From contig CBDFGR010000002.1 of NCBI GenBank assembly GCA_965247115.1, forward strand, positions 1,536,001 through 1,600,000: 64,000 nt of DNA, read 5' to 3'. The DNA is from Myxococcota bacterium. Its GTDB lineage: Bacteria > Myxococcota_A > UBA9160 > SZUA-336. A program made the translations under genes and the position numbers. Shown here one piece after another: positions 9,092 to 53,717 of this stretch. The notes below the pieces were generated by a model. The model saw only the letters and a list, made by a program, of their open reading frames with translations. It was not told the DNA's origin and ran no database searches. Positions within the stretch are counted from its first letter, which is position 1, and every line of letters starts with the position of its first letter.

Positions 9092-9139
9092 AACCCCTAC
9101 CCGATCGGCAACCTGAACCCCTAGCCGATCGGCAACCTG
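9092..9139. repeat. Tandem 2 x 24-bp direct repeat
   Basis: aacccctacccgatcggcaacctg / aacccctagccgatcggcaacctg (one mismatch). Confidence 0.9.
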
Positions 9140-9223
9140 CAAGCGCCGCAATTGCGGCGCGCGCAGCGAAGGCCTGAGCGAAGGTGGGTGGCCCGCGGAC
9201 GCCCGCGGGCCGGGTCCCACAGG
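9138..9223 (-). repeat. REP-like family 1 copy (middle hairpin collapsed)
   Basis: Reverse complement of the TGTGGGACCCGGCCCGCGG...GCGGCGCTTGCA unit. Confidence 0.9.
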
Positions 9224-9226
9224 GAC

Positions 9227-10663: not shown

Positions 10664-10710
10664 AGCTCGAGTCCATCGCTCACTCTATCGGCGAGGAACT
10701 CCGCGGGCTT

Positions 10711-10991
10711 GTCTTGTGGGACCCGGCCCGCGGGCGGCCGCGGGCCACCCACCTTCGCTCAGGCCAAAGGCCTTCGCTGCGCGCGCCGCTTCCGCGGCGC
10801 TTGCCTTGTGGGACCCGGCCCGCGGGCGGCCGCGGGCCACCCACCTTCGCTCAGGCCAAAGGCCCTCGCTGCGCGCGCCGCTTCCGCGGCGCTGCGCGCG
10901 CCGCTGCATGGGTGGGGACTCCGCAACGGGTTGCCGATTCTTCACGGAATCTGAACTTGGGAATCTGAACTTGGGGACGGTCCTTAATCTT
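10711..10991 (+). repeat. REP-like family 1 doublet (92-bp period) plus conserved tail
   Basis: Units start at 10713 and 10805; the tail ending GAATCTGAACTTGGGGACGGTCCTT is shared with the 40.15-kb locus. Confidence 0.9.
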
Positions 10992-14438: not shown

Positions 14439-14451
14439 CCGAGCCAACCGG

Positions 14452-14546
14452 GCAAGCGCCGCGGAACGCGGCGCGCGCAGCGAAGGCCGAAGGCCTGAGC
14501 GAAGGTGGGTGGCCCGCGGACGCCCGCGGGTCGGGTCCCACAAGAC
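14452..14546 (-). repeat. REP-like family 1 copy
   Basis: Full unit between convergent yraN and rplS. Confidence 0.9.
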
Positions 14547-14550
14547 AGGT

Positions 14551-16816: not shown

Positions 16817-17134
16817 GTGCGTGGCCGGCACCCAGGACGGCGCAAGAGTGGGCCACCCGAAGCGGTGGCGACTCTGTTGCCCAGCGTGCTCGACGAAGTG
16901 GGACTCGGCGCGACGTCAGACGCGGTGCAGCTCGTCCACGTCTGGGACGAGACCCTCGGCGAGCCCTTTGCTGCGAACTGCCGCCCCGAGGGTGTCCGCA
17001 AGGGGGTGGTGGTGGCCCGAGTCCCCGACTCGGCCTGGATGCAGCGTATCCAGCTCGAGAAGCCACGCATCCTGAAGCGCCTGGCAGAAGCGCTCGCGGA
17101 GCCCCCGCACGACATCCGACTCCTCATCGGCTGA
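16817..17134 (+). CDS. dciA: DUF721/DciA family protein (replicative helicase loader-like)
   Basis: W..LG......RP......V.V.DSAWMQ.IQL.K..I pattern, 105 aa. Confidence 0.8.
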   Translation: MRGRHPGRRKSGPPEAVATLLPSVLDEVGLGATSDAVQLVHVWDETLGEPFAANCRPEGVRKGVVVARVPDSAWMQRIQLEKPRILKRLAEALAEPPHDIRLLIG

Positions 17135-17723
17135 GCACGGCCGCCTCCAGGATCGCGTCGAAGCGGATCGCCCCCTCGCGCAGGAGACGCAGGTTCCCGT
17201 CGGGATCGAGTGCAACGACGCTCGACGGGGCAAGATTCCCGGCCGTCCCCGCGACGACTGGCAGCTCCTGGCCGAAGAGCTCGTGAACCTCGCAAGCGGT
17301 CCCACATGGCGCTTCCCCGCTGCGATTGCAGCTCGTCGCGGCGATCGGCCGCTCGTACAGCCGCGCCAGGCGAGCGGCGACCGGGTGCGAGGAGCACCGA
17401 AAGCCGACACCGAACTCTGTAGCCACCTGCGCGAACGCGACGTCGACCTGTTGCAGCACCAGGGTGAGGGGACCGGGCCAGAAGCGCTTGGTCAAAAGAA
17501 GCGCTGGTTCGGGAAGGCTCGGGAGCCAGGCCTCCAGCGCGCTCGCGTCCCGGACCAGCACCGAGAGCCCGCGCTCGGGCGCCCGCCCCTTGAGGACTTG
17601 GAGTGCCTCGAGCGCGCTCGGCTCGAAGACGTCGACACCGAGGCCAAAGACGGTCTCGGTGGGATAGGCCACGACCCGCCCAGTCCCGAGGAGGCGAACG
17701 GCCTCGTCCGCAGAAACGATCAA
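17124..17723 (-). CDS. tsaC: Threonylcarbamoyl-AMP synthase (YrdC/TsaC)
   Basis: VAYPTETVFGLG, LKGR, FWPGPLTLV, TSCNRSG, LREGAI; TTG start overlaps the purD stop. Confidence 0.93.
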   Translation of the reverse strand: MIVSADEAVRLLGTGRVVAYPTETVFGLGVDVFEPSALEALQVLKGRAPERGLSVLVRDASALEAWLPSLPEPALLLTKRFWPGPLTLVLQQVDVAFAQVATEFGVGFRCSSHPVAARLARLYERPIAATSCNRSGEAPCGTACEVHELFGQELPVVAGTAGNLAPSSVVALDPDGNLRLLREGAIRFDAILEAAVLSR

Positions 17724-19291
17724 CCCGCGTGGTCCCGGAGCGCCCGGAGCGCAATGTCGCTCCTGAGCTGGGCACCCTCGAACTGGATGCGACGCGCGGC
17801 GGCGTAGGCACGATCGCGGGCGGCGGCGATGCTGGCACCGCGGGCCGTGATGCCGAGCACGCGCCCACCTGCCGTCTCCCAGCGACCGCCAGAGCGGCGG
17901 GTGGCGGCGTGAAACACGAGAACCTCCGGCTCGCTCTCGAGCTCCTCGAGCCCCCTGATCTCTCGCCCCACCGGGTAGCTGCGCGGATAGCCCTCGCTCG
18001 CCAGCACGACGCACACGGCCGGATCCCCGAAGACGGGGCCTGCGGGACCCGGCGCGCGAGCGGTCGCGCGCCACCCACCTCCGCTCGGCTTCGCCTCGCT
18101 GCGCGCGCCGCTATCCGCGGCGCTTGCACCTGCGGGACCCGGCGCGCGAGCGGTCGCGCGCCACCCACCTCCGCTCGGCTTCGCCTCGCTGCGCGCGCCG
18201 CTATCCGCGGCGCTTGCACCTGCGGGACCCGGCGCGCGAGCGGTCGCGCGCCACCCACCTCCGCTCGGCTTCGCCTCGCTGCGCGCGCCGCTATCCGCGG
18301 CGCTTGCACCTGCGGGATCCGGCGCGCGAGCCGCTTGCAGAGGGAGCTGGCCCTGGGCCGCACCCACGAGCAGCGGGACGAGGTCGGACTCCATTCGGTA
18401 CAGCAGAGGCTGCGTCTCCGGGTCGCCGAAGCGGACGTTAAACTCCACCACAACGGGCTCGGCCTCGACGACCATCACGCCGACGTAGAGCACTCCCCGA
18501 TAGGGCGTGCCCTCCGCACGCAGGCCGTCGAGCGTGGGCTGAACGATCTTCTCGATGATTCGCTGCTCCACGTCGGGGCTCACAACCGGGGCCGGGGAGT
18601 AGGCGCCCATGCCTCCTGTGTTCTCGCCGCGGTCACCGTCTAGCGCGCGTTTGTGATCCTGCGCAGCGGCCAGGCACACGCTGCGCTCCCCGTCGGAGAT
18701 CGCGTAGTACGAGGCCTCCTCGCCAACGAGCCAGTCCTCGATCACGACCTCGGCACCGGAGTCGCCGAAGCGCCGCTCGCGCATGATCTCCGAGAGGGCA
18801 ACGCTCGCCTCATCCGGACCCGCGCACATGTACACGCCCTTGCCAGCCGCGAGCCCGTCCGCCTTCACGACAAGCGGCCCGCCGCGAGCGCGCACATACC
18901 GCTCCGCTTTGTCTGGGTCCGCGAAGCCCTGGTAGGCGGCAGTCGGGATGCCGTGGCGCTGCATGAAGGCCTTGGCGAAGCTCTTGCTGCCCTCAAGGCG
19001 AGCCGCGGCCGCGCCGGGCCCGAATACCGCGATCCCGGCAGCCTCGAGGTGATCCGCCAATCCCGCGACCAGGGGAACCTCGGGACCGACGACCACCAGC
19101 TGAACGTCCTCGCGTTTCACGAGCTCCACGACGGAGTCGGGGCTGGCCAGCCGCGCCTCCGCACAGCGGCCGTGTCGCCCGATGCCGTCGCTGCCCGGGG
19201 CGCAGAGCACCTCGTCGACCAGCGGGCTGCGGCCGATCGCCCAGACCAGCGCGTGCTCACGACCTCCCGAGCCCAGAACCAGGACGCGCAT
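17720..19291 (-). CDS. purD: Phosphoribosylamine--glycine ligase carrying an in-frame repeat insertion
   Basis: GSGGREHAL, LEGSKSFAK, KADGLAAGKGV, QDHKR, NTGGMGAYSP, EFNVRFGDPETQ, GGRVLG; 523 aa. Confidence 0.96.
   Translation of the reverse strand: MRVLVLGSGGREHALVWAIGRSPLVDEVLCAPGSDGIGRHGRCAEARLASPDSVVELVKREDVQLVVVGPEVPLVAGLADHLEAAGIAVFGPGAAAARLEGSKSFAKAFMQRHGIPTAAYQGFADPDKAERYVRARGGPLVVKADGLAAGKGVYMCAGPDEASVALSEIMRERRFGDSGAEVVIEDWLVGEEASYYAISDGERSVCLAAAQDHKRALDGDRGENTGGMGAYSPAPVVSPDVEQRIIEKIVQPTLDGLRAEGTPYRGVLYVGVMVVEAEPVVVEFNVRFGDPETQPLLYRMESDLVPLLVGAAQGQLPLQAARAPDPAGASAADSGARSEAKPSGGGWRATARAPGPAGASAADSGARSEAKPSGGGWRATARAPGPAGASAADSGARSEAKPSGGGWRATARAPGPAGPVFGDPAVCVVLASEGYPRSYPVGREIRGLEELESEPEVLVFHAATRRSGGRWETAGGRVLGITARGASIAAARDRAYAAARRIQFEGAQLRSDIALRALRDHAG
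18039..18331 (+). repeat. Intragenic tandem array of REP-like family 1 variant, 3.25 x 90 bp
   Basis: Identical units at 18039, 18129 and 18219 plus a 23-bp partial unit at 18309. Confidence 0.97.
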
Positions 19292-19299
19292 CACTCCTC

Positions 19300-19420
19300 C
19301 TTGTGGGACCCGCGCGCGGGCGGCCCTCCCGCGGGTCAACGACCCGCGGGCCGCTGACGGCTTCCCACCTTCGCTCAGGCCTACGGCCTTCGCTGCGCGC
19401 GCCGCTATGCGGCGCTTGCA
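19300..19420 (+). repeat. REP-like family 1 copy with expanded first stem, abutting the purD SD
   Basis: TTGTGGGACC...CCCACCTTCGCTCAGGCCTACGGCCTTCGCTGCGCGCGCCGCTATGCGGCGCTTGCA. Confidence 0.88.
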
Positions 19421-19470
19421 GGCTGCCTATTCTAGCGCTCAGGCTTACGACCTTCGGCGCGTTTCTTGGG

Positions 19471-20592
19471 TCAGCAGATGACCCGGGGGATGCGCGGGCC
19501 GATCCGGACCAGGATCTCGTAGGAGATGGTGTCGGCGGCCAGGGCCAGCTCCTCGACACGAAGCTCGAGCGCGGCGCGCCGGCCGAAGAGGAGCACCTCG
19601 TCTCCCTCGTGGCCCTCCCCGACCCGACCCACGTCGACGGTCGCCAGGTCACAAGAGACGCGGCCCACGAGCGGGACGCGTCGGCCGCGATGGCCGACCT
19701 GCAGGCGATTCCCCGCCGCCCGCGGCAGACCGTCCGCGTAGCCGATCGGCAGGGTCAGGATGCGCGTCGCATCCGGCGTCTCGTACGTCCCCCCGTACCC
19801 GATGCGCATGCCCGCAGGGACGTCCTTCGCCAGGCAGACACGCGCACACAGCGTCATCACCGCCTCGAGCGCGTGCCCGCCCTCGAGCGTGGGGTCGGCC
19901 CCGTACAGCGCGAGGCCGGGGCGTACTGCCGTCGTGTCCGGGGTCGCGCCCCGCACGATCCCTGCGGAGTTGTCGATGTGGGTCCACTCCGGCTCGAAGC
20001 CCGCGTCGCGGACCTGCGCGAGGAGCTCCCCGAACAGCTTGCGTTGGCGCTCGGTCACGGCGGACGAAGGATCGTCCGCCTCCGCCAAGTGGCTCATGAC
20101 CCCTTCCAGACCGACCTCCGGGGTCGAGCCCAGACGCTCGAGGATCGGCGTCAGATCCCGCGGCAGGAAGCCCAGGCGTCCCATCCCCGTGTCCAACTTC
20201 AGGTGGACAGGCGCACGCACTCCCGCCCGCTTCGCCGCAGCCGCGACCGCTTCCAGATGCTGCAGGCGCAGCAATGTTGGCACCACCTGAAGGGCCAGCA
20301 GCTCGTCCGCGTGTTGCGGCGTAAGCGGCCCCGCCAGCAGGAGAATCGGTGCTCGGATCGAGGCCTGCCGCAGCTCCCGCGCCTCCTCCAGCGTGACCAC
20401 GGCGAGCGCGTCGCAACCTGCGCGCACGAGGGCATGCGAGACCGGAACGACACCGTGTCCGTAGGCGTTCGCCTTGACGACCGCGATCACGCGTCGGTCC
20501 CGCGCCTGCTGCCGGAGCTGGGCGTAATTCCGCTGCAGCGCGCCGAGGTCGATCTCGGCCCAGGCGCGCGCCTTCTCCTCGGTCACCTTCAC
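19471..20592 (-). CDS. alr: Alanine racemase
   Basis: AVVKANAYGHG (PLP lysine), HLKLDTGMGRLG, RPGLALYG, IGYADG, GRVSCD. Confidence 0.96.
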   Translation of the reverse strand: MKVTEEKARAWAEIDLGALQRNYAQLRQQARDRRVIAVVKANAYGHGVVPVSHALVRAGCDALAVVTLEEARELRQASIRAPILLLAGPLTPQHADELLALQVVPTLLRLQHLEAVAAAAKRAGVRAPVHLKLDTGMGRLGFLPRDLTPILERLGSTPEVGLEGVMSHLAEADDPSSAVTERQRKLFGELLAQVRDAGFEPEWTHIDNSAGIVRGATPDTTAVRPGLALYGADPTLEGGHALEAVMTLCARVCLAKDVPAGMRIGYGGTYETPDATRILTLPIGYADGLPRAAGNRLQVGHRGRRVPLVGRVSCDLATVDVGRVGEGHEGDEVLLFGRRAALELRVEELALAADTISYEILVRIGPRIPRVIC

Positions 20593-22270: not shown

Positions 22271-23721
22271 CTCGCGCCTCACTCCTCGTACCGTTCGTCG
22301 CGAGCTTGGTCGGCTGCACAAGCCTGCCGAGCGCGCTCGCGAACGATCCGCTGGAGGCCCTGCAGACCCGGGTCATCGACGTCAACCACGCGGCGAGCCC
22401 CTCCGTCGTCCACATCGAGGCGGCGCTCAAGGTCAACAACCGGCGCAAGCTGGTGACAGGCTCCGGCTTCATTACCCATCCCGAGGGCATCGTGGTGACA
22501 AACGAGCACGTGGTCGAGCGGGCGCAGAAGGTCACCGTCCTGGTTCCTGGACGCGAGGGTCGCTATGCGGCGCAGGTCGTGGGAACGGACAAGCAGACGG
22601 ACCTCGCGGTCCTGCGCATCGAGCCGCGCGAGGGGGAGCCGCCTTTCGCCGCAGCCGCACTCGGTGACTCCGACCAGCTGCGCGTTGGGGAGTGGGTGAT
22701 CGCGATCGGAAATCCCTACGGGCTGGAAGGGACGGTCTCGCTTGGGATCGTGTCGGCCAAGGGCCGGGATCTGAAAGAAGGGAATCTGCTGAACGACTTC
22801 ATCCAGACGGACGCCATGATCGATCACGGCTCGTCGGGCGGACCTTTGCTCGATCTGGACGGGCTGGTCGTAGGCGTGAATTCCCGCGGCCAGGGTCGCG
22901 GCATCGGCTTCACCATCCCCATCAACACGGCCAAGCAGGTCGCGGCCGATCTGCTGGGCGAGGGGCGCATCGCGCGCGGCTATCTCGGCGTGTCCATTCA
23001 GCCGCTCGATCGCGAGCTCGCCCGCTACTGGGGCATCGAGCAGATCCACGGCGTGATCGTCGGCGCGGTGACGCACCAATCGCCTGCCCAGAATGCCGGG
23101 CTCCACGTGGGCGACATCATCACGCGCTTCGACGGCGAGGAGATCCGCGCGGAGAAGGACGAGGACATGGGCCAGTTCCAGCGCCTGATCGCGGCCATGC
23201 AGGCGGGGGAGGAGGTCGCGATCGACGTATTGCGCGGTGGTGAGCACAAGACCGTTACCGCGACGCTGAGCGCCCAGCCCAAGGTCGTACCCGATGAGGA
23301 AGAGACCGAGCTCGGCTTCACCGCCCAGGAGGTGACCGAGATCCTCTATCGATCCCACCGTCTCGAGCAACGCTCCGGGGTGCTCTGCTCCTTCGTCGAG
23401 CGCGGCTCGGAGGCGGCTGAGGCGGGCATGGCACCTGGAGACCTGATCGTGGAGGTCGAGGGGGTCGAGATCCGCGACATCGAGGAGTTCCGGCAGGCGA
23501 TGAGGGACCTGCGTCCTGGCACTCCGTTCCTGATCCGGGCGCTGCGTGGCGACAACATGCGGTACATGCTGGTCGTGCCGCGTTCCGGCGACTTCCGGGC
23601 CGCAAGCGCGAGACCCGAGCGGCAGCTTGCGCGCAAGATCGATGTGCGAGCCAGAGACGAGGGCGGGGAGGGAACAGATCTTGCGCAGTCATCCTCTGAA
23701 GGCAGGCGGATCACCAAATAG
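22267..23721 (+). CDS. HtrA/DegP-like serine protease with 2 PDZ domains, putative lipoprotein
   Basis: TNEHVV, DLAVL, TDAMIDHGSSGGPL; LVGC lipobox-like. Confidence 0.9.
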   Translation: MTRASLLVPFVASLVGCTSLPSALANDPLEALQTRVIDVNHAASPSVVHIEAALKVNNRRKLVTGSGFITHPEGIVVTNEHVVERAQKVTVLVPGREGRYAAQVVGTDKQTDLAVLRIEPREGEPPFAAAALGDSDQLRVGEWVIAIGNPYGLEGTVSLGIVSAKGRDLKEGNLLNDFIQTDAMIDHGSSGGPLLDLDGLVVGVNSRGQGRGIGFTIPINTAKQVAADLLGEGRIARGYLGVSIQPLDRELARYWGIEQIHGVIVGAVTHQSPAQNAGLHVGDIITRFDGEEIRAEKDEDMGQFQRLIAAMQAGEEVAIDVLRGGEHKTVTATLSAQPKVVPDEEETELGFTAQEVTEILYRSHRLEQRSGVLCSFVERGSEAAEAGMAPGDLIVEVEGVEIRDIEEFRQAMRDLRPGTPFLIRALRGDNMRYMLVVPRSGDFRAASARPERQLARKIDVRARDEGGEGTDLAQSSSEGRRITK

Positions 23722-23755
23722 GGCGGCGGAGCCCGCCGTCAAAGGGACTGGCCCG

Positions 23756-25111
23756 ATGAAGAGCACCCTACTCGCTTGGGTCGTCCTTCCGATCCTCGCG
23801 ATCGGGAGCACGGCTGTAGCCGACGTCGACACGCGCCGCACCCCCATTGTGAAGGCCGTAGAGCGCGTTGGCCCAGCCACAGTGAACATCACCTCGACCC
23901 AGGAGGTGCGCCAGCGGGCCAATCCCTTCTTCAGCTCGGACCCGTTCATCGAGAAGTTCTTCGGCACCTTCCTCGATCCCCGGCGCCGAACGGTCAGCAG
24001 CCTGGGTACCGGCCTCATCATCGGGCCAGAGGGCCAGGTGCTGACGAACGAGCACGTCCTGGCCGGCGCGACACAGATCCACGTCGTGCTCGCCGACGGG
24101 CGCGAGTTCGACGCCGAGCTCATCGGCGCGGACCCGGAGACGGACCTCGCGGTCGTGCAGATCAGCGCGGACGAGCCGCTGCCCTTCGTGGAGCTCGGGA
24201 GCTCGGAGGATCTGCTGATTGGCGAGACCGTGATCGCGATCGGGAACCCTTTCGGCCTGCACCACACGGTAACAACCGGCGTGCTCTCAGCGGAGAACCG
24301 CTCGATCCGCGCGGGCGACCGCGAGTACCACGGGTTCCTGCAGACCGACGCAAGTATCAACCCAGGGAACTCGGGCGGACCGCTGCTCAACATCGACGGC
24401 GACGTGATCGCCATCAATACCGCCATCTTTCGCGAGGCGGAGGGAATCGGCTTTGCCATCCCGATAGACAGGGCGAAGCGGGTCGTCGACGACCTCTTGA
24501 CCCACGGCGAGGTCATTCCGGTCTGGCTGGGCCTTCGCCTGCAAGACCTCACCCAGAGCCTCCGCGACGCGTTCACTGCCCGCGCGACGGGCGGCGTCCT
24601 GATTACGCACGTCTTCGCTGACTCCCCCGCGCAGCGCGCGAAGCTGCGCCGTGGCGACATCCTGCTCGAGCTGGATGGGACGAAGATCGGCACCGCGCGC
24701 AACTACTTCGAGGTCCTGGCCGGGCTGACCGATGGGGACCGCGCCGAGCTCGTGATCGACCGCGGGGGAGATCAACATCGGCAGGAGACGCACGCTGAGA
24801 TCTTTCCGGAGAGCAGGGCCGACGAGCTGGCTCAGATCCTTCTCGGTGTGGAAGTTGCGGAGATAGACAGTGAGCCGGGGGCCCGCCGCCGGGGCAACCG
24901 CGGCCTCGTAGTGCGGCGTGTCATCCCCCGTAGCTCAGCGGATTACAAGAGGATTCGACCAGGCGATGTGATCCTGAAGATCGACCAGGACCCGGTCGAG
25001 GATCGTGTTGCCTTTCGCAAGGCGATTACTAAGCTTCGCGGACGTGGACAGGTGCTCCTTCTCGTCCAGCGCGAGCGCTATGGCTACTACGTGACCCTGG
25101 ATCTGTCCTAG
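23756..25111 (+). CDS. HtrA/DegQ-like serine protease with 2 PDZ domains
   Basis: Signal peptide; TNEHV, DLAV, TDASINPGNSGGPL. Confidence 0.93.
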   Translation: MKSTLLAWVVLPILAIGSTAVADVDTRRTPIVKAVERVGPATVNITSTQEVRQRANPFFSSDPFIEKFFGTFLDPRRRTVSSLGTGLIIGPEGQVLTNEHVLAGATQIHVVLADGREFDAELIGADPETDLAVVQISADEPLPFVELGSSEDLLIGETVIAIGNPFGLHHTVTTGVLSAENRSIRAGDREYHGFLQTDASINPGNSGGPLLNIDGDVIAINTAIFREAEGIGFAIPIDRAKRVVDDLLTHGEVIPVWLGLRLQDLTQSLRDAFTARATGGVLITHVFADSPAQRAKLRRGDILLELDGTKIGTARNYFEVLAGLTDGDRAELVIDRGGDQHRQETHAEIFPESRADELAQILLGVEVAEIDSEPGARRRGNRGLVVRRVIPRSSADYKRIRPGDVILKIDQDPVEDRVAFRKAITKLRGRGQVLLLVQRERYGYYVTLDLS

Positions 25112-25130
25112 ACCGCAGGAGAGGAATTCG

Positions 25131-26579
25131 ATGAGACACGGCAAGGTTCTGGCGGCGATCGGCTTCGCGTTTGGGGGATTGCTGATCCTCACCCAACCGC
25201 TGGGCCTGGAGCTGCGGCTGAGCGAAAAGAGTGCCCACGCCCGCGTCGCGGGCGACGCCTTCTGGACGGACGGACAACCCGGCCCCACGCTCGGCAGGCC
25301 CGACTCGGTGGCGGATCTGGCCGAGGCCCTGTCTCCCGCGGTCGTGAACATCAAAACGGAGCGGAAGAGCAGCGCTCGCAGTCCCGACATCTTCGAGGAG
25401 TTCTTCGGGCGCCGCCGTCCTCGGGGAGGACCGCCTCCACAGTTCCGCACCGACGCGACGGGCTCGGGCTTCGTAATCTCCGAGGACGGCTACATCGTGA
25501 CGAACAACCACGTGGTGGAGGGAGCCGACAAGATCGTTGTGGTGCTGGACAACGGAGAGGAGCTCGATGCGGAGATCGTCGGTCGTGACCCGGAGACGGA
25601 CCTGGCGTTGCTCAAGATAGACGCCGATCACGAGCTCAACGTCGCACCGCTAGGTGACTCCGACGCCATCCGCGTCGGCGATTGGCTCATGGCGATCGGC
25701 AATCCCTTCGGACTCGATCACACGGTTACCCTCGGCATCCTGTCCGCGCGCGGCCGCAACATCAACGCAGGAAGGTACGACGACTTCCTGCAGACCGACG
25801 CGAGCATAAATCCTGGCAACTCGGGTGGACCGCTGTTCGACATGCGCGGGCGCGTGATCGGGATCAACACGGCAATCAACCAGAACGGTCAGGGCATCGG
25901 CTTTGCCATCCCGATCAACATGGCGAAGGATCTGCTCCCTCAGCTGCGCGCCGTGGGCGCGGTGACGCGAGGCTGGCTCGGTGTGCAGATTCAGCGCGTG
26001 AACCCGGCCCTGGCGAAGAGCTTCGGGCTCGATGAGCCGCGCGGCGCCCTCATCTCCATGGTCTTCGAGGACGGGCCGGCGGACAAGGCCCGGATCAAGC
26101 GCGGCGACGTGATCGTCGAGTTCGACGGCTCCGCGATCGACGAGTTCAACGACCTTCCGAGAATCGTGGCGAATACCGCTCCCGAGAGCGAGGTCTCGGT
26201 CAAGGTGCTGCGCGACGGTAAGGCCAAGACCCTCAAGGCAAGGCTCGGCAAGCTGGAGGAGGACCAGGTCCAGCTGGCATCGACCGAGCGCCACGATTCC
26301 GAGTGGGGCTTCGAGGTGGAGGCCCTGACCAGCGACATCGTGGAGAGGCTCGATCTGGACAAGGACCTGTCCGGCGTCCTGGTAACGGGCGTCGATCCCG
26401 AGTCAGGTGCCTACGATGAGGGGCTGCGCCAGGGCGACATCATTCTCGAGGTGAACCGCACCGAGGTCTCCCGGCCCGACCAGGTGACCCGGGCGCTCGA
26501 GAAGGAAGACGAGCACGCCGTGCTTCTCGTGCAGCGAGGCGAGGCGACGCTGTATCTCGCGATCGAGCGGGAGCGGTAG
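25131..26579 (+). CDS. DegP/DegQ (Do family) serine protease with 2 PDZ domains
   Basis: TNNHVV, DLALL, TDASINPGNSGGPL, RGWLGVQIQ. Confidence 0.95.
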   Translation: MRHGKVLAAIGFAFGGLLILTQPLGLELRLSEKSAHARVAGDAFWTDGQPGPTLGRPDSVADLAEALSPAVVNIKTERKSSARSPDIFEEFFGRRRPRGGPPPQFRTDATGSGFVISEDGYIVTNNHVVEGADKIVVVLDNGEELDAEIVGRDPETDLALLKIDADHELNVAPLGDSDAIRVGDWLMAIGNPFGLDHTVTLGILSARGRNINAGRYDDFLQTDASINPGNSGGPLFDMRGRVIGINTAINQNGQGIGFAIPINMAKDLLPQLRAVGAVTRGWLGVQIQRVNPALAKSFGLDEPRGALISMVFEDGPADKARIKRGDVIVEFDGSAIDEFNDLPRIVANTAPESEVSVKVLRDGKAKTLKARLGKLEEDQVQLASTERHDSEWGFEVEALTSDIVERLDLDKDLSGVLVTGVDPESGAYDEGLRQGDIILEVNRTEVSRPDQVTRALEKEDEHAVLLVQRGEATLYLAIERER

Positions 26580-34119: not shown

Positions 34120-34218
34120 CTTGCGGGTCTTGCGGGATCCGGCGCGCGAGCGGTCGCGCGCCACCCGCTCTTCGTTCGCCTACGGCTCACTGCGCACCGC
34201 GCCTACGGCGCGGCTTGC
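34120..34218 (+). repeat. REP-like family 1 copy (purD-type stem 1) between convergent genes
   Basis: GGCGCGCGAGCGGTCGCGCGCC stem; duplicated CTTGCGGG head. Confidence 0.85.
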
Positions 34219-34227
34219 GGGGGTCCG

Positions 34228-40146: not shown

Positions 40147-40150
40147 TCGG

Positions 40151-40545
40151 GTCTTGTGGGACCCGGCCCGCGGGCGGCCGCGGACCACCCACCTCCGCTC
40201 AGGCCTACGGCCTTCGCTGCGCGCGCCGCTTCCGCGGCGCTTGCCTTGTGGGACCCGGCCCGCGGGCGGCCGCGGGCCACCCACCCCCGCTCAGGCCTAC
40301 GGCCTTCGCTGCGCGCGCCGCTTCCGCGGCGCTTGCATGGTTGCCAAGCCCCGCAGGGAATTGCCGGTTCTCCACAGAATCTGAACTAGGTGGGAATCTG
40401 AACTTGGGGACGGTCCTTCGTCTTAACTTCTTTGGACGAGGTTGGAACTTCTGGTCACTCTGGCGGGACTCTTGAGCACAGTCGTTTATTTGGGCGTCGT
40501 TGCGGTCGTCTCAGGCGGAGTAGGTTCTGATTCAGTGACCGTCCC
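40151..40545 (+). mobile_element. REP-like family 1 doublet plus conserved tail plus ~140-bp segment bounded by inverted GGGACGGTC (non-autonomous element candidate)
   Basis: Units at 40153 and 40245; tail shared with 10.9 kb; GGGACGGTC at 40407-40415 and its reverse complement at 40537-40545; lower-GC interior. Confidence 0.6.
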
Positions 40546-47099: not shown

Positions 47100-47119
47100 T
47101 GGGTTCCTCCTCTGGCCGT

Positions 47120-47210
47120 GTCTTGTGGGACCCGGCCGCGGGCGGCCGCGGCCACCCACCTCCGCTCAGGCCTTCGGCCTTCGCTGCGCGCGCGCATTCG
47201 CGCGCTTGCA
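47120..47210 (+). repeat. REP-like family 1 copy (shortened stem 1, altered stem 3)
   Basis: GGCCGCGG-GCGG-CCGCGGCC; GCGCGCG-CATT-CGCGCGC. Confidence 0.9.
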
Positions 47211-47305
47211 GGGTGGTCCTGGGTCATCACCAGAGAAGGTTAACCACGAGGATGGGTGTGGTGCCAGCCTGGCCCCAACTTGGCGCTAGCGGGTATGCTC
47301 GGGAC

Positions 47306-49501: not shown

Positions 49502-52000
49502 GTGCGCGACGCCGTGTTGTGTCCCGGTTCCAAGTTGCCCCCCCTCGCGGGACCCGGTACCTGTCTTGCGGGACTGGGCCCGCGGGCGGCCGGGGGCTAC
49601 CCGCCTCCCCGGAGACCTAGGGCCTTCGCTCTTCGCGCTGCCATCGGGGCGTTTGCGGGGGGTCTGCGCAGGCTCGGCCCGGTACTGTCACTCGCACTCG
49701 CGCTGTCCGGAGCTGACCACGCGCTTGCGCAGGAAGCGCCGACGCTGATCGATTCGAAGGTCTGGCAGGAGCGCTTCCGGGAGTGGGTCGAGCAGCAACT
49801 CGTGCGCGATCAGATCGACGCCGCCGCGGAGAACCTGCCGACCCTGGATCGGCGGCTGGTCCTGCGCGTGCTCGACCGGCTCGAAGACGACTTGCTCATC
49901 TCGCTGCGCGAGGTGCCCTCGCTGCCAGAGGACGCGCTGGTGAAGATGCTCGCGCGAGGGCTCGACGGCCCCGCGTTGGTCTCGGCGCGACTCTTCGCCG
50001 ACGGCCAGACGGCGCAGGCTCTCGAGATCCTCGGGACGCCCGAGCTCGCCGAAGACGCGCCGACCCAGCACCTGCGGGCCCAGCTCCTTGACAACCTGAG
50101 CGCGGACCTGCCGCCGCTCTATCGGCTCCAGGTGATCGAGCTCTACCGCGAGGCGCTGCGTCTCGACGGGGAGCTGCCCCAGGCGAATCGCGCCCGCCTG
50201 CGCATCGGTCAGATCTATCTCGAGCTCCGTTTCGCGAGAGAGGCACGTGCGGCACTGCGCACGCTCCTGGAGAGAGACCTCCCTGAGTCCTACCGAAGGG
50301 CGGCCCAGCTCTCGCTGGCGGAGGCTGCCTACGTGGACCGCGCTCCGGTTCGCGCGATCGAGCACCTCGCGATGATCGACCTGGAGGCGGTCAGCCCCGC
50401 GACTCGCGACTGGGTCTCCCGGCGGCACGCGGACAGTCTCGTCAAGCTGGAGCGCTACGGAGAAGCGATTGCGCTCTACCGGCGCGTCCTCCGCGCCGAC
50501 GTACCCCTCGAGCCGCTGGTCGCGGTGAACCTCGCGTTCGCCCTGTTACACACGCGCGAGTGGCGCGCCGCTCCCGAGCTCCTCGATCCGATCGTCGCGG
50601 GAACCGCCTCGCGTCCCACCCGCGCGATCGCCGCCATGCTGCTAGCCCGCGCGCAGCGCCGCCTCGTGTCATTCAAGGAGGCCTCTCAGTCCGCCACTCG
50701 CGCGACGGAGCTCGCTCCCGGTACCGAGGTCGCTGCGCTCGCGGCCGTCGAGACGCTCGAGGCGGAGCGTGCTCTCCACAACGACTCGGTCCCGCTTCCC
50801 CCCGGGACAGCTCCTCTCGTGCAGAGCACGACCTTCATTCCAGCGGTCGGACTGCTGACCTATCTCGTACAGGCTGCTCCCAGTCCCGGAGATACCCCAC
50901 AGGAGCAGAGACGCCGTCTGGGCTCACTCGCGGTCACGCTTCCGCCCGGCATCGTTCAGCACCTGGCCTACACGGATCTGGTTACCTGGCTCGCCAGCGA
51001 CCTTGCAAGAATCGCAACCCGGCAGATCGAGCCAGACCCCTCGGTTCTCGCGGACACGGGTCGCTACCTGCGACCCCAAACGATGGACGAAGACGTCCTT
51101 CTGCTCGCGATCGAGTCCCAGATGCTGGCGGGAGATCACAATCGCTGTGCCCGCTGGGCACGCACGCTGCAGCGCCGTGAGCCGCGGCCGCTGCGCCGCG
51201 GCATCGGAACGTGGCGCGAGGTCACGTGTCGTCTGCCTGGCGCAGAAGACGTCAATGCGGCGCGGCGCATGATGGTGCTCGCCGACAGTGGCGCCGCGGG
51301 GCCATTCGCGCTGGCCGTCGCCGCGGTCGCGGCCGAAACGTACGTGCAACGGGGAGACCTCGAGCGCGCGGCTCTCACCTTCGCGCGAGCGGTCGAATCG
51401 TTCTCGGAGCCGACCTTCGTGGGACCTGTGCTGCTCCGCCTCGGGGAGATCGAGGTCGCCCTGGGCCAGGATGCGCTGGCTCTTAACCGGCTGTCACGAG
51501 GACTCACGCTCTCGGACGCCCCGGACGCCGCCTCCGAACCCTTTCGCAAAGCGGGGATCGTCGCACTGGCCCGGGTCGCCGCCCGCAGCGAGAAGCCCGA
51601 GCGCGCGCTGCGTCTCCTCCAGGCCGAGCACGACCGCGCGGAAGACTGGTGGGCAGAGGCGTACGCCTACCTACTCCTCCACACCGGTGCCACGGATCCG
51701 CCAAAAGGCGACAGCCTCTTCGCCCGTGGCGCTCGCGCCCAAGACGAGATCAAGACCATGCGCGCGAGGCTACAACGCGTACAACGAAGACGAGCCCGCA
51801 ACCGCCGCCCCCCACACAGCGGCCCCCCCCCTCGCAACCTAGCCCCACCTCCGCCAGCAAACGCGTCCACCGCACGACACGGCAACCCGCAAGCGCCGCA
51901 AAGCGGCGCGCGCAGCGAAGGCCGCAGGCCTGAGCGAAGGTGGGTGGCCCGCGGCCGCCCGCGGGCCGGGTCCCACAAGACGCGGTCCCACAAGACATGA
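49502..52000 (+). CDS. Large TPR-like helical-repeat protein, probably exported; start uncertain; both ends include repeat-derived sequence
   Basis: Ala/Leu-rich helical pairs (ARLRIGQIYLEL, LLRLGEIEVALG); signal-like RRLGPVLSLALALSGADHALA; lies before the flagellar activator. Confidence 0.7.
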   Translation: MRDAVLCPGSKLPPLAGPGTCLAGLGPRAAGGYPPPRRPRAFALRAAIGAFAGGLRRLGPVLSLALALSGADHALAQEAPTLIDSKVWQERFREWVEQQLVRDQIDAAAENLPTLDRRLVLRVLDRLEDDLLISLREVPSLPEDALVKMLARGLDGPALVSARLFADGQTAQALEILGTPELAEDAPTQHLRAQLLDNLSADLPPLYRLQVIELYREALRLDGELPQANRARLRIGQIYLELRFAREARAALRTLLERDLPESYRRAAQLSLAEAAYVDRAPVRAIEHLAMIDLEAVSPATRDWVSRRHADSLVKLERYGEAIALYRRVLRADVPLEPLVAVNLAFALLHTREWRAAPELLDPIVAGTASRPTRAIAAMLLARAQRRLVSFKEASQSATRATELAPGTEVAALAAVETLEAERALHNDSVPLPPGTAPLVQSTTFIPAVGLLTYLVQAAPSPGDTPQEQRRRLGSLAVTLPPGIVQHLAYTDLVTWLASDLARIATRQIEPDPSVLADTGRYLRPQTMDEDVLLLAIESQMLAGDHNRCARWARTLQRREPRPLRRGIGTWREVTCRLPGAEDVNAARRMMVLADSGAAGPFALAVAAVAAETYVQRGDLERAALTFARAVESFSEPTFVGPVLLRLGEIEVALGQDALALNRLSRGLTLSDAPDAASEPFRKAGIVALARVAARSEKPERALRLLQAEHDRAEDWWAEAYAYLLLHTGATDPPKGDSLFARGARAQDEIKTMRARLQRVQRRRARNRRPPHSGPPPRNLAPPPPANASTARHGNPQAPQSGARSEGRRPERRWVARGRPRAGSHKTRSHKT
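49563..49656 (+). repeat. Degenerate REP-like family 1 copy
   Basis: gtcttgcgggactgggcccgcgggcggccgggggctacccgcc...ggccttcgct...gcgtttgc. Confidence 0.75.
51889..51996 (-). repeat. REP-like family 1 copy with duplicated head, inside the 3' end of the upstream ORF
   Basis: Full unit plus a repeated ggtcccacaagac, directly followed by ATGA. Confidence 0.9.
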
Positions 52001-53513: not shown

Positions 53514-53535
53514 TCCCAGCCACCACCAGCAACCC

Positions 53536-53628
53536 TGCAAGCGCCGCGCGAGCGGCGCGCGCAGCGAAGGGCATAGCCCTGAGCGGAGGTGGGTGGCCGC
53601 GGCCGCCCGCGGCCGGGTCCCACAGGAC
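53536..53628 (-). repeat. REP-like family 1 copy
   Basis: Shortened stem 1; stem 2 variant AGGGC-TAT-GCCCT. Confidence 0.9.
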
Positions 53629-53717
53629 CCAGGCAAGAACTGCCCCGTGGCCTGTCGCGTATGGACTCGCTCAGCACGCCTGAGCCCGCATGTCTGCGAC
53701 CGCGCCGGCGAAGCTCC

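Follow-up and report, generated by a model that had tools for sequence, protein, structure and literature searches.

An in-frame tandem repeat of variable copy number within purD of an uncultured member of Myxococcota, probably derived from a genome-wide selfish repeat

The purD locus and its repeat array

The window analysed in this study is a stretch of 64,000 nucleotides from the genome of an uncultured bacterium of Myxococcota (G000; 5.17 Mb, 3 contigs, 66% G+C). On its minus strand, an ORF at 17720-19291 encodes a phosphoribosylamine-glycine ligase (PurD) of 523 aa, which scored 492.9 bits against TIGR00877 (cut-off 288) and contains the Pfam domains GARS_N, GARS_A and GARS_C. Searching the genome with GARS_A (PF01071) gave this gene as the single match above the cut-off. 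The earlier note had left room for an intact second purD and a decaying copy here; no second gene was present above the cut-off, and the sole copy had neither a stop nor a frameshift. Both purF and purM were also found above cut-off. The TGA stop of purD overlaps the TTG start of a tsaC/YrdC-family gene (17124-17723, minus strand), the only one in the genome as indicated by a single match to PF01300; its score against TIGR00057 was 115 bits, just below the cut-off of 123. The overlap agrees with the suggested coupling of the two genes. The tsaC gene is usually essential, and because its start overlaps the purD stop, a frameshift in purD would probably be polar on it.

TRF detected a tandem repeat at 18039-18331 with a period of 90, 3.3 copies and 99% matches. 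Comparison of the units bore out three 90-bp units of 30 codons each (18039-18308, minus strand), 100% identical to one another, plus a 23-bp head, and the peptide proposed for them was confirmed in the stop-free 523-aa frame. The head, with 1 base changed, is joined directly to an 8-bp unit tail (18332-18339); on this arrangement and on comparison with the sister genome G002, the stretch 18309-18339 (minus strand) is read as a collapsed fourth unit, so that the whole insert amounts to 101 codons, compared with 5 codons between LP and PVFG in G002. The insert is located between GARS_A (residues 101-293) and GARS_C (425-515), that is, in the linker before the C-terminal domain, as had been proposed, and PurD is 92% and 82% identical in amino acids to that of G002 on the two sides of the insert. 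The purD unit is private: within this genome its closest copy is 91% alike, and neither its head nor the loop of its third hairpin is seen outside purD. No Rfam family matched 17900-19500 above threshold, the one chance match having an E value of 0.67.

The insert was absent from PurD of all 30 relatives, 28 by reading of the sequence, L015 by length, and G001. Between RFGDPE and the C-terminal domain, all 26 relatives that could be measured (one could not) have 40-45 residues, compared with 138 here. PurD of G002 is 427 aa long. The prediction that deletion of 270 bp would leave a 433-aa PurD of normal length was thus half right, in that such an allele exists (see below) and the normal length is approximately 427 aa.

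The purD gene is under purifying selection. Over 422 codons compared with G002, its dN/dS was 0.116, which ranks at the 21st percentile among 766 gene pairs with a median of 0.159, and outside the array 11 strain differences were observed, 10 silent and 1 exchanging Lys for Arg; the silent difference at 18650 had high depth and may stem from other organisms. These measures concern another species and strains of which many lack the units, so full activity of the three-unit allele is not established by them. No halo of mutations was seen beside the array, with third-position divergence of 0.28-0.34 in the adjacent regions and 0.18-0.50 in the rest of purD.

AlphaFold modelling of the 523-aa protein (28 sequences) gave a pTM of 0.81, with pLDDT of at least 90 at 378 of 523 residues and below 50 over residues 328-413; the enzyme fold is predicted to be kept and the insert to be disordered. 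The model resembled solved GAR synthetases in Foldseek with TM scores of 0.94-0.95 (target-normalised). At the RNA level, the array was calculated to fold at -198 kcal/mol per 315 nt, as against -138 to -164 in array-free windows of purD, and each unit carries GGAGG on the sense strand; a cost of the array is therefore possible. Among 1.84 billion representative proteins, similar peptides amounted to 4 weak hits (E up to 0.001), of which the 2 inspected were unrelated repeats, and a metagenome scan with a pattern from the purD flank returned 24 loci, none encoding PurD.

Copy number of the array among strains

The array was surveyed in 7 of 24 listed sequencing runs, one per study, all in the form of assembled contigs. 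Unitigs of X1, which may be the sample behind this assembly, broke exactly where the allele of the window predicts changes in 31-mer multiplicity, and depths were 8.9 and 11.4 in the flanks, 22 in the two-copy part and 32.2 in the three-copy part, corresponding to 3 units. Contigs of X2 and X4 spanned the right filled junction with unit sequence attached, which indicates at least 1 unit, and those of X5 forked at the end of the head with depths of 5.75 and 3.1, read as approximately 2 units. In X7 and X9, from two studies, a single contig omitted exactly 270 bp and joined 18048 to 18319, the shorter side being 128 and 149 bases, respectively. X6 held both states: a loose end running from the head into post-array sequence (zero units) and a contig over the filled junction without differences. 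As the head is 23 bases long and a false path at k = 31 would need 30, the zero-unit allele was taken to be present in the reads themselves.

Filled alleles were thus present in 5 of the 7 runs (5 studies) and zero-unit alleles in 3. As in an intragenic VNTR, whole in-frame units differ between strains (0, at least 1, approximately 2 and 3 units in the 7 runs), in agreement with the proposal that the array is expandable at constant frame. The zero-unit contigs mean that a 433-aa PurD allele occurs in nature; it retains the 31-bp collapsed unit, which codes for most of an 11-residue remnant linker.

The assembly is of an uncultured genome in 3 contigs, and its identical tandem units could arouse suspicion of an artefact, a possibility that the earlier note had also raised. 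The unitig ends and 1:2:3 depths of X1 fit the allele of the window, and both junctions, or the right one, were crossed in runs of other studies. These results contradict an artefact, the probability of which is negligible; the purD array is real.

The R1 repeat family, its host genes and R2

A profile built from 164 copies of the repeat, designated R1, was used to search the genome with nhmmer and gave 198 hits at 162 sites, among them the purD unit, which is therefore a variant of the intergenic repeat of the window, as had been suggested. R1 spans approximately 92 bp and forms three stems whose two arms change together, with symmetric changes in length, while the loops vary freely; stem 2, for example, occurs as AGGCC/GGCCT, AGGGC/GCCCT or GGC/GCC. 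The hairpins are deduced from these two-sided changes between copies and not from folding of single units, which fold no better than shuffled sequences (z -1.1 to -1.2). Eight of the 162 sites are in called genes and 154 outside them, in a genome that is 86% coding. Convergent gaps are enriched, containing 60 of the 154 intergenic sites compared with 260 of 1822 gaps longer than 90 bp (odds ratio 3.8, on our own gene calls).

Neighbouring copies are often arranged head to tail, with 27 same-strand pairs. The contrast drawn earlier between a period of 92 bp in intergenic arrays and 90 bp in purD applied within this window; genome-wide, array periods ranged from 61 to 115 bp and 90 bp occurred at two sites outside called genes, so that compatibility with the purD frame appears as a filter on ordinary variation. 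Longer intergenic arrays were also seen, with six units of period 76 at G000:C3:1870737-1871232 and five units of period 92 in G002 (L112:6883-7348). In the window, dimers of period 92 lie on the plus strand at 10708-10893, followed by a piece of a second repeat, R2 (10960-10989), and at 40149-40342, with an R2 element (40393-40545) abutting the 3' tail and the whole extending over 40149-40545. Single copies are present on the plus strand at 34125-34222, 47118-47215 and 49559-49660, and on the minus strand at 9133-9225, 14447-14550, 51884-51982 and 53531-53629. Another copy, between alr and purD (19331-19424, plus strand), has the orientation of the array and is found at the same site in G002. 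Elsewhere in the window (22574-26468), three related genes follow one another at intervals of approximately 1.5 kb and are associated with the direct-repeat families D7, D11, D15 and D20.

With blastn, R1 was detected in 29 of the 61 genomes that represent the class and in 20 of the 31 other genomes of the family. A scan of GTDB with the R1 core pattern gave 44 loci; the copies verified by nhmmer were in Myxococcota or Deltaproteobacteria records, and the rest were chance matches or other repeats. Of the 5.8 Mb of G002, 1.67 Mb were compared with the source genome, providing 48 comparable sites, 27 shared and 21 not. Unshared sites were replaced rather than clean, several having remnants or R2 in place of R1. 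R1 does not resemble a MITE, since its two ends differ, no signal of target duplication was obtained (5-mers common to both flanks in 12 of 123 copies, 17.7 in shuffles) and its empty sites are not clean. Thirty-four called genes lying between neighbouring R1 copies looked by eye like ordinary host genes, without a cargo or nuclease gene among them.

Besides purD, R1 is inserted internally and in frame in genes for CheW, DnaE2 (PHP domain), ImuB and an AddA/RecB-type helicase, and at the junction between LpxI and a Gfo/Idh/MocA oxidoreductase. R1 is thus found both between genes and in frame in 6 internal hosts of unrelated families. G002 has inserts at the same sites in CheW, DnaE2, ImuB and the LpxI-oxidoreductase ORF, of other lengths and with open frames, and only a 15-base R1 remnant in AddA. 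G001 has no insert in CheW and carries an independent in-frame R1 copy on the opposite strand in the same ImuB loop. No further in-frame inserts were found among additional G002 and R1-family loci under the filter applied. The inserts in PurD, CheW, DnaE2, AddA and LpxI code for different peptides, because the reading frame through R1 changes from gene to gene, and no peptide is conserved.

All six internal inserts of the source genome read one strand, the one more often closed by stops; on the opposite strand, 102 of 107 copies have no stop in any of the three frames. Neutrality does not predict this bias. Co-directional intergenic copies were divided 30 to 25 between the strands, and 16 of the 25 on the other strand start no more than 7 bases from the end of the upstream gene. 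Of 5 relatives, 4 have lpxI and the oxidoreductase gene as separate genes, and the two overlap stop to start in G001 and G011; in G000 (G000:C2:1436772-1438769, equal to L032:773-2770, minus strand; also L064) and G002 they form one ORF, and the 75 bases that precede the second domain contain no start codon. This ORF is likely a gene fusion made by the repeat. Its structure predicted from a single sequence had a mean pLDDT of 40.9, too low to be informative. At G000:C3:1790500-1797500 (L034; L033), the adjacent imuB and dnaE2 of a mutagenesis cassette and an AddA-type helicase gene 8 kb off all carry R1, which echoes the bias toward repair genes in the available part of PMC3733652. Copies at or near gene ends extend the C-termini of a thioredoxin-fold multiheme protein and an unknown protein (G000:C2:193470-193564 and C2:734469-734560), and another lies in a weakly called gene (C3:1308587-1308685).

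R2 was recognised as the spacer of tail-to-tail R1 pairs. It has 54 sites in the genome and is a MITE carrying the inverted ends of a tyrosine transposase flanked by terminal inverted repeats (TIRs), often placed between two inverted R1 copies. At 38 of the 54 sites R2 is within 100 bp of R1, with 50 contacts at the R1 3' tail, at a distance of approximately 22 bases, and 1 at the head. A Y1 transposase gene with R2-type ends is present at L039:1044-1872 (minus strand; G000:C3:2177k); it is frameshifted before its C-terminal part and scored 76.2 bits against NF047646 (cut-off 80). Five other Y1 matches in the genome are of another type and lack such ends. A GGTCCC motif closely precedes the start codon in relatives of the L039 transposase and also terminates R1 on the strand that purD reads.

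By circumstantial association, an HUH tyrosine transposase of the TIR-flanked kind is a tentative candidate for the mobiliser of R1. R1 flanked tyrosine-transposase genes at none of 25 loci, and the TIR-flanked transposase query had no match in G002, a genome rich in R1; the transposase is therefore a lead only. The nearest R1 copy was at least 3.4 kb from each of the 6 Y1 matches in G000, so no flanking of RAYT-type genes was seen in this genome. A GIY-YIG enzyme was also considered and rejected, the sole match in the genome being a frame of 669 aa that lies 3.7 kb away from the closest R1 copy.

Origin of the array and comparison with known systems

The likely explanation of the purD array is that a selfish repeat present throughout the genome has come to lie in frame and survives because it merely lengthens a loop predicted to be disordered. 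After the split from G002, one R1 copy would have entered the linker, replacing approximately 15 bases, and would have become a head-to-tail dimer, as often in this family, of which one unit collapsed to head and tail. That the unit is private, with its nearest copy 91% alike, suggests a single old insertion. Slippage or recombination between the 23-bp heads may then delete or duplicate whole units. The stop-free 90-bp unit would have been filtered rather than designed, copies that shift the frame, and would be polar on tsaC, being lost. PurD would be made with an Ala/Gly/Ser/Pro/Arg-rich loop of 41 to 101 residues and presumably stays active.

The alternative that copy number is selected, with loop length or mRNA structure setting PurD activity or tsaC translation in the manner of a contingency locus, can appeal to the changes of length by 90 bases that keep the frame, the coexistence of filled and zero-unit alleles in one sample, the strong folding of the array mRNA, the stop-start coupling to tsaC and the retention of four other in-frame inserts in two species with dS near 0.37. 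It is unlikely, for the array is missing from 30 relatives, the frame of R1 differs by gene with no peptide conserved and only 4 weak hits in the protein search, and intergenic arrays vary likewise. A wider form of the same idea, in which R1 generates protein linkers reversibly by entering loops, growing and shrinking in frame, leaving coding scars and welding genes, and selection sets the number of purD units so as to adjust purine synthesis or tsaC translation, is doubtful. In the earlier note the repeat had been described as a selfish hairpin that is tolerated or domesticated. The selfish part agrees with our results; domestication lacks support, since the array is missing from some conspecific strains and from all the relatives, peptides differ from host to host and a period of 90 bp is found outside the gene as well.

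It could also be supposed that the long allele harms its carriers or lacks activity and does not last, having been amplified recently in purine-scavenging strains and being purged by collapse to the zero-unit form. The identity of the three units does indicate a recent amplification, the zero-unit state is frequent, occurring in 3 of the 7 runs, and AddA of G002 is down to its 15-base remnant. Such an account is unlikely: 5 of the 7 runs, each from its own study, contain filled alleles, the strains concerned differ by SNPs that are nearly all silent, the modelled catalytic domains are intact and purD is free of stops and frameshifts. The reverse direction, with the 31-bp remnant being old and full units copied in from elsewhere by gene conversion or targeted reinsertion, would fit the turnover of insertion sites (G000 and G002 disagree at 21 of the 48 that could be compared, and at several of these a remnant or R2 takes the place of R1) and the double hit on the ImuB loop; it is very unlikely, as the genome offers no donor, the third-hairpin loop and head being private to purD and the nearest copy only 91% alike. 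Taken together, R1 is best read as a selfish repeat of the REP/RPE kind that is tolerated in permissive loops and is not domesticated.

Rickettsia palindromic elements (RPEs; Ogata et al. 2000, 2002, via PMC10969869), invoked previously as the precedent for in-frame repeats, hold as such in the available part of that article. They are described there as dispersed elements of approximately 100-150 bp, present between genes and in frame in housekeeping genes and apparently compatible with the protein fold, with nearly half of the sites intragenic. R1 is likewise dispersed, between genes and in frame in unrelated genes, and for PurD the host fold is kept by prediction around a loop insert. R1 differs in having a GC-rich and apparently unrelated sequence, in residing in a free-standing 5.2-Mb genome with approximately 5% of its sites intragenic, in lacking a conserved peptide and in forming head-to-tail arrays whose copy number varies among strains. 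In-frame palindromes have also arisen from other repeats, according to the portion of PMC3184786 consulted.

As given in the main text of Di Nocera et al. (2013, PMC3733652), intragenic GTAG/CGTC REPs make in-frame inserts, with clusters coding for 43-82 aa, in hosts including dnaE2 and recB/uvrD. R1 shares with them the in-frame location, the enrichment in convergent gaps and the host classes DnaE2 and RecB/UvrD-type helicases, and differs in its unit of 90-94 bp with three stems, compared with 20-40 bp and one stem; of 123 full R1 copies, only 7 had a GTAG/CGTC tag close to an end. That text, in the part available, mentions no strain-level change of copy number inside a gene for these REPs, and its 4 text supplements do not list purD. 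Pneumococcal BOX elements (Croucher et al. 2011, PMC3049150), in the sections seen, have fixed A and C ends and variable B modules and lie mostly in spurious or terminal ORFs, although two S. suis genes are intact despite box modules. R1 is similarly dispersed and folded, with tandem modules that vary among strains and open frames; it differs by repeating the whole unit, and by doing so inside a core enzyme.

A further likeness is to TIRtron/TIRYT elements (TnpA-Y1 subclass 2.1), as outlined in the available parts of PMC3733652 and 10.1101/279083, since the Y1 transposase here is flanked by long inverted repeats, R2, which abut R1. The R2 motif GGGGACGG is one base off the motif GGGG[AT][CG]A[CG] published for these elements. 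The difference is that R1 itself flanks no such gene and that the gene here is frameshifted. Mycobacterial MIRU-VNTRs, in the extract of PMC3914561 used, are dispersed tandem repeats of 46-101 bp with copy number varying among strains, and R1 can be likened to them by description; inserts inside enzymes are not mentioned in that extract.

The purD array is accordingly a variant of known phenomena: coding palindromes and variable arrays are each known, and the variant lies in their combination in a sole-copy enzyme. In the literature searched, which excluded most subscription journals, no report was found of the R1 family, of a palindromic insert in purD or of such a copy-number series in a sole-copy enzyme. 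The array reveals no new enzyme or pathway. Coding palindromes are usually seen as fixed inserts, which leaves open whether they are neutral or useful. Here one locus presents, in living populations, a series that runs from the empty site of the sister species through a 31-base scar to arrays of one to three complete units, with the frame kept throughout, and because these alleles belong to a sole-copy enzyme that is easily scored by complementation, the cost of a coding palindrome would be directly measurable. The array may also serve as a strain marker, and it illustrates a route by which mobile DNA may add loops to proteins and join genes.
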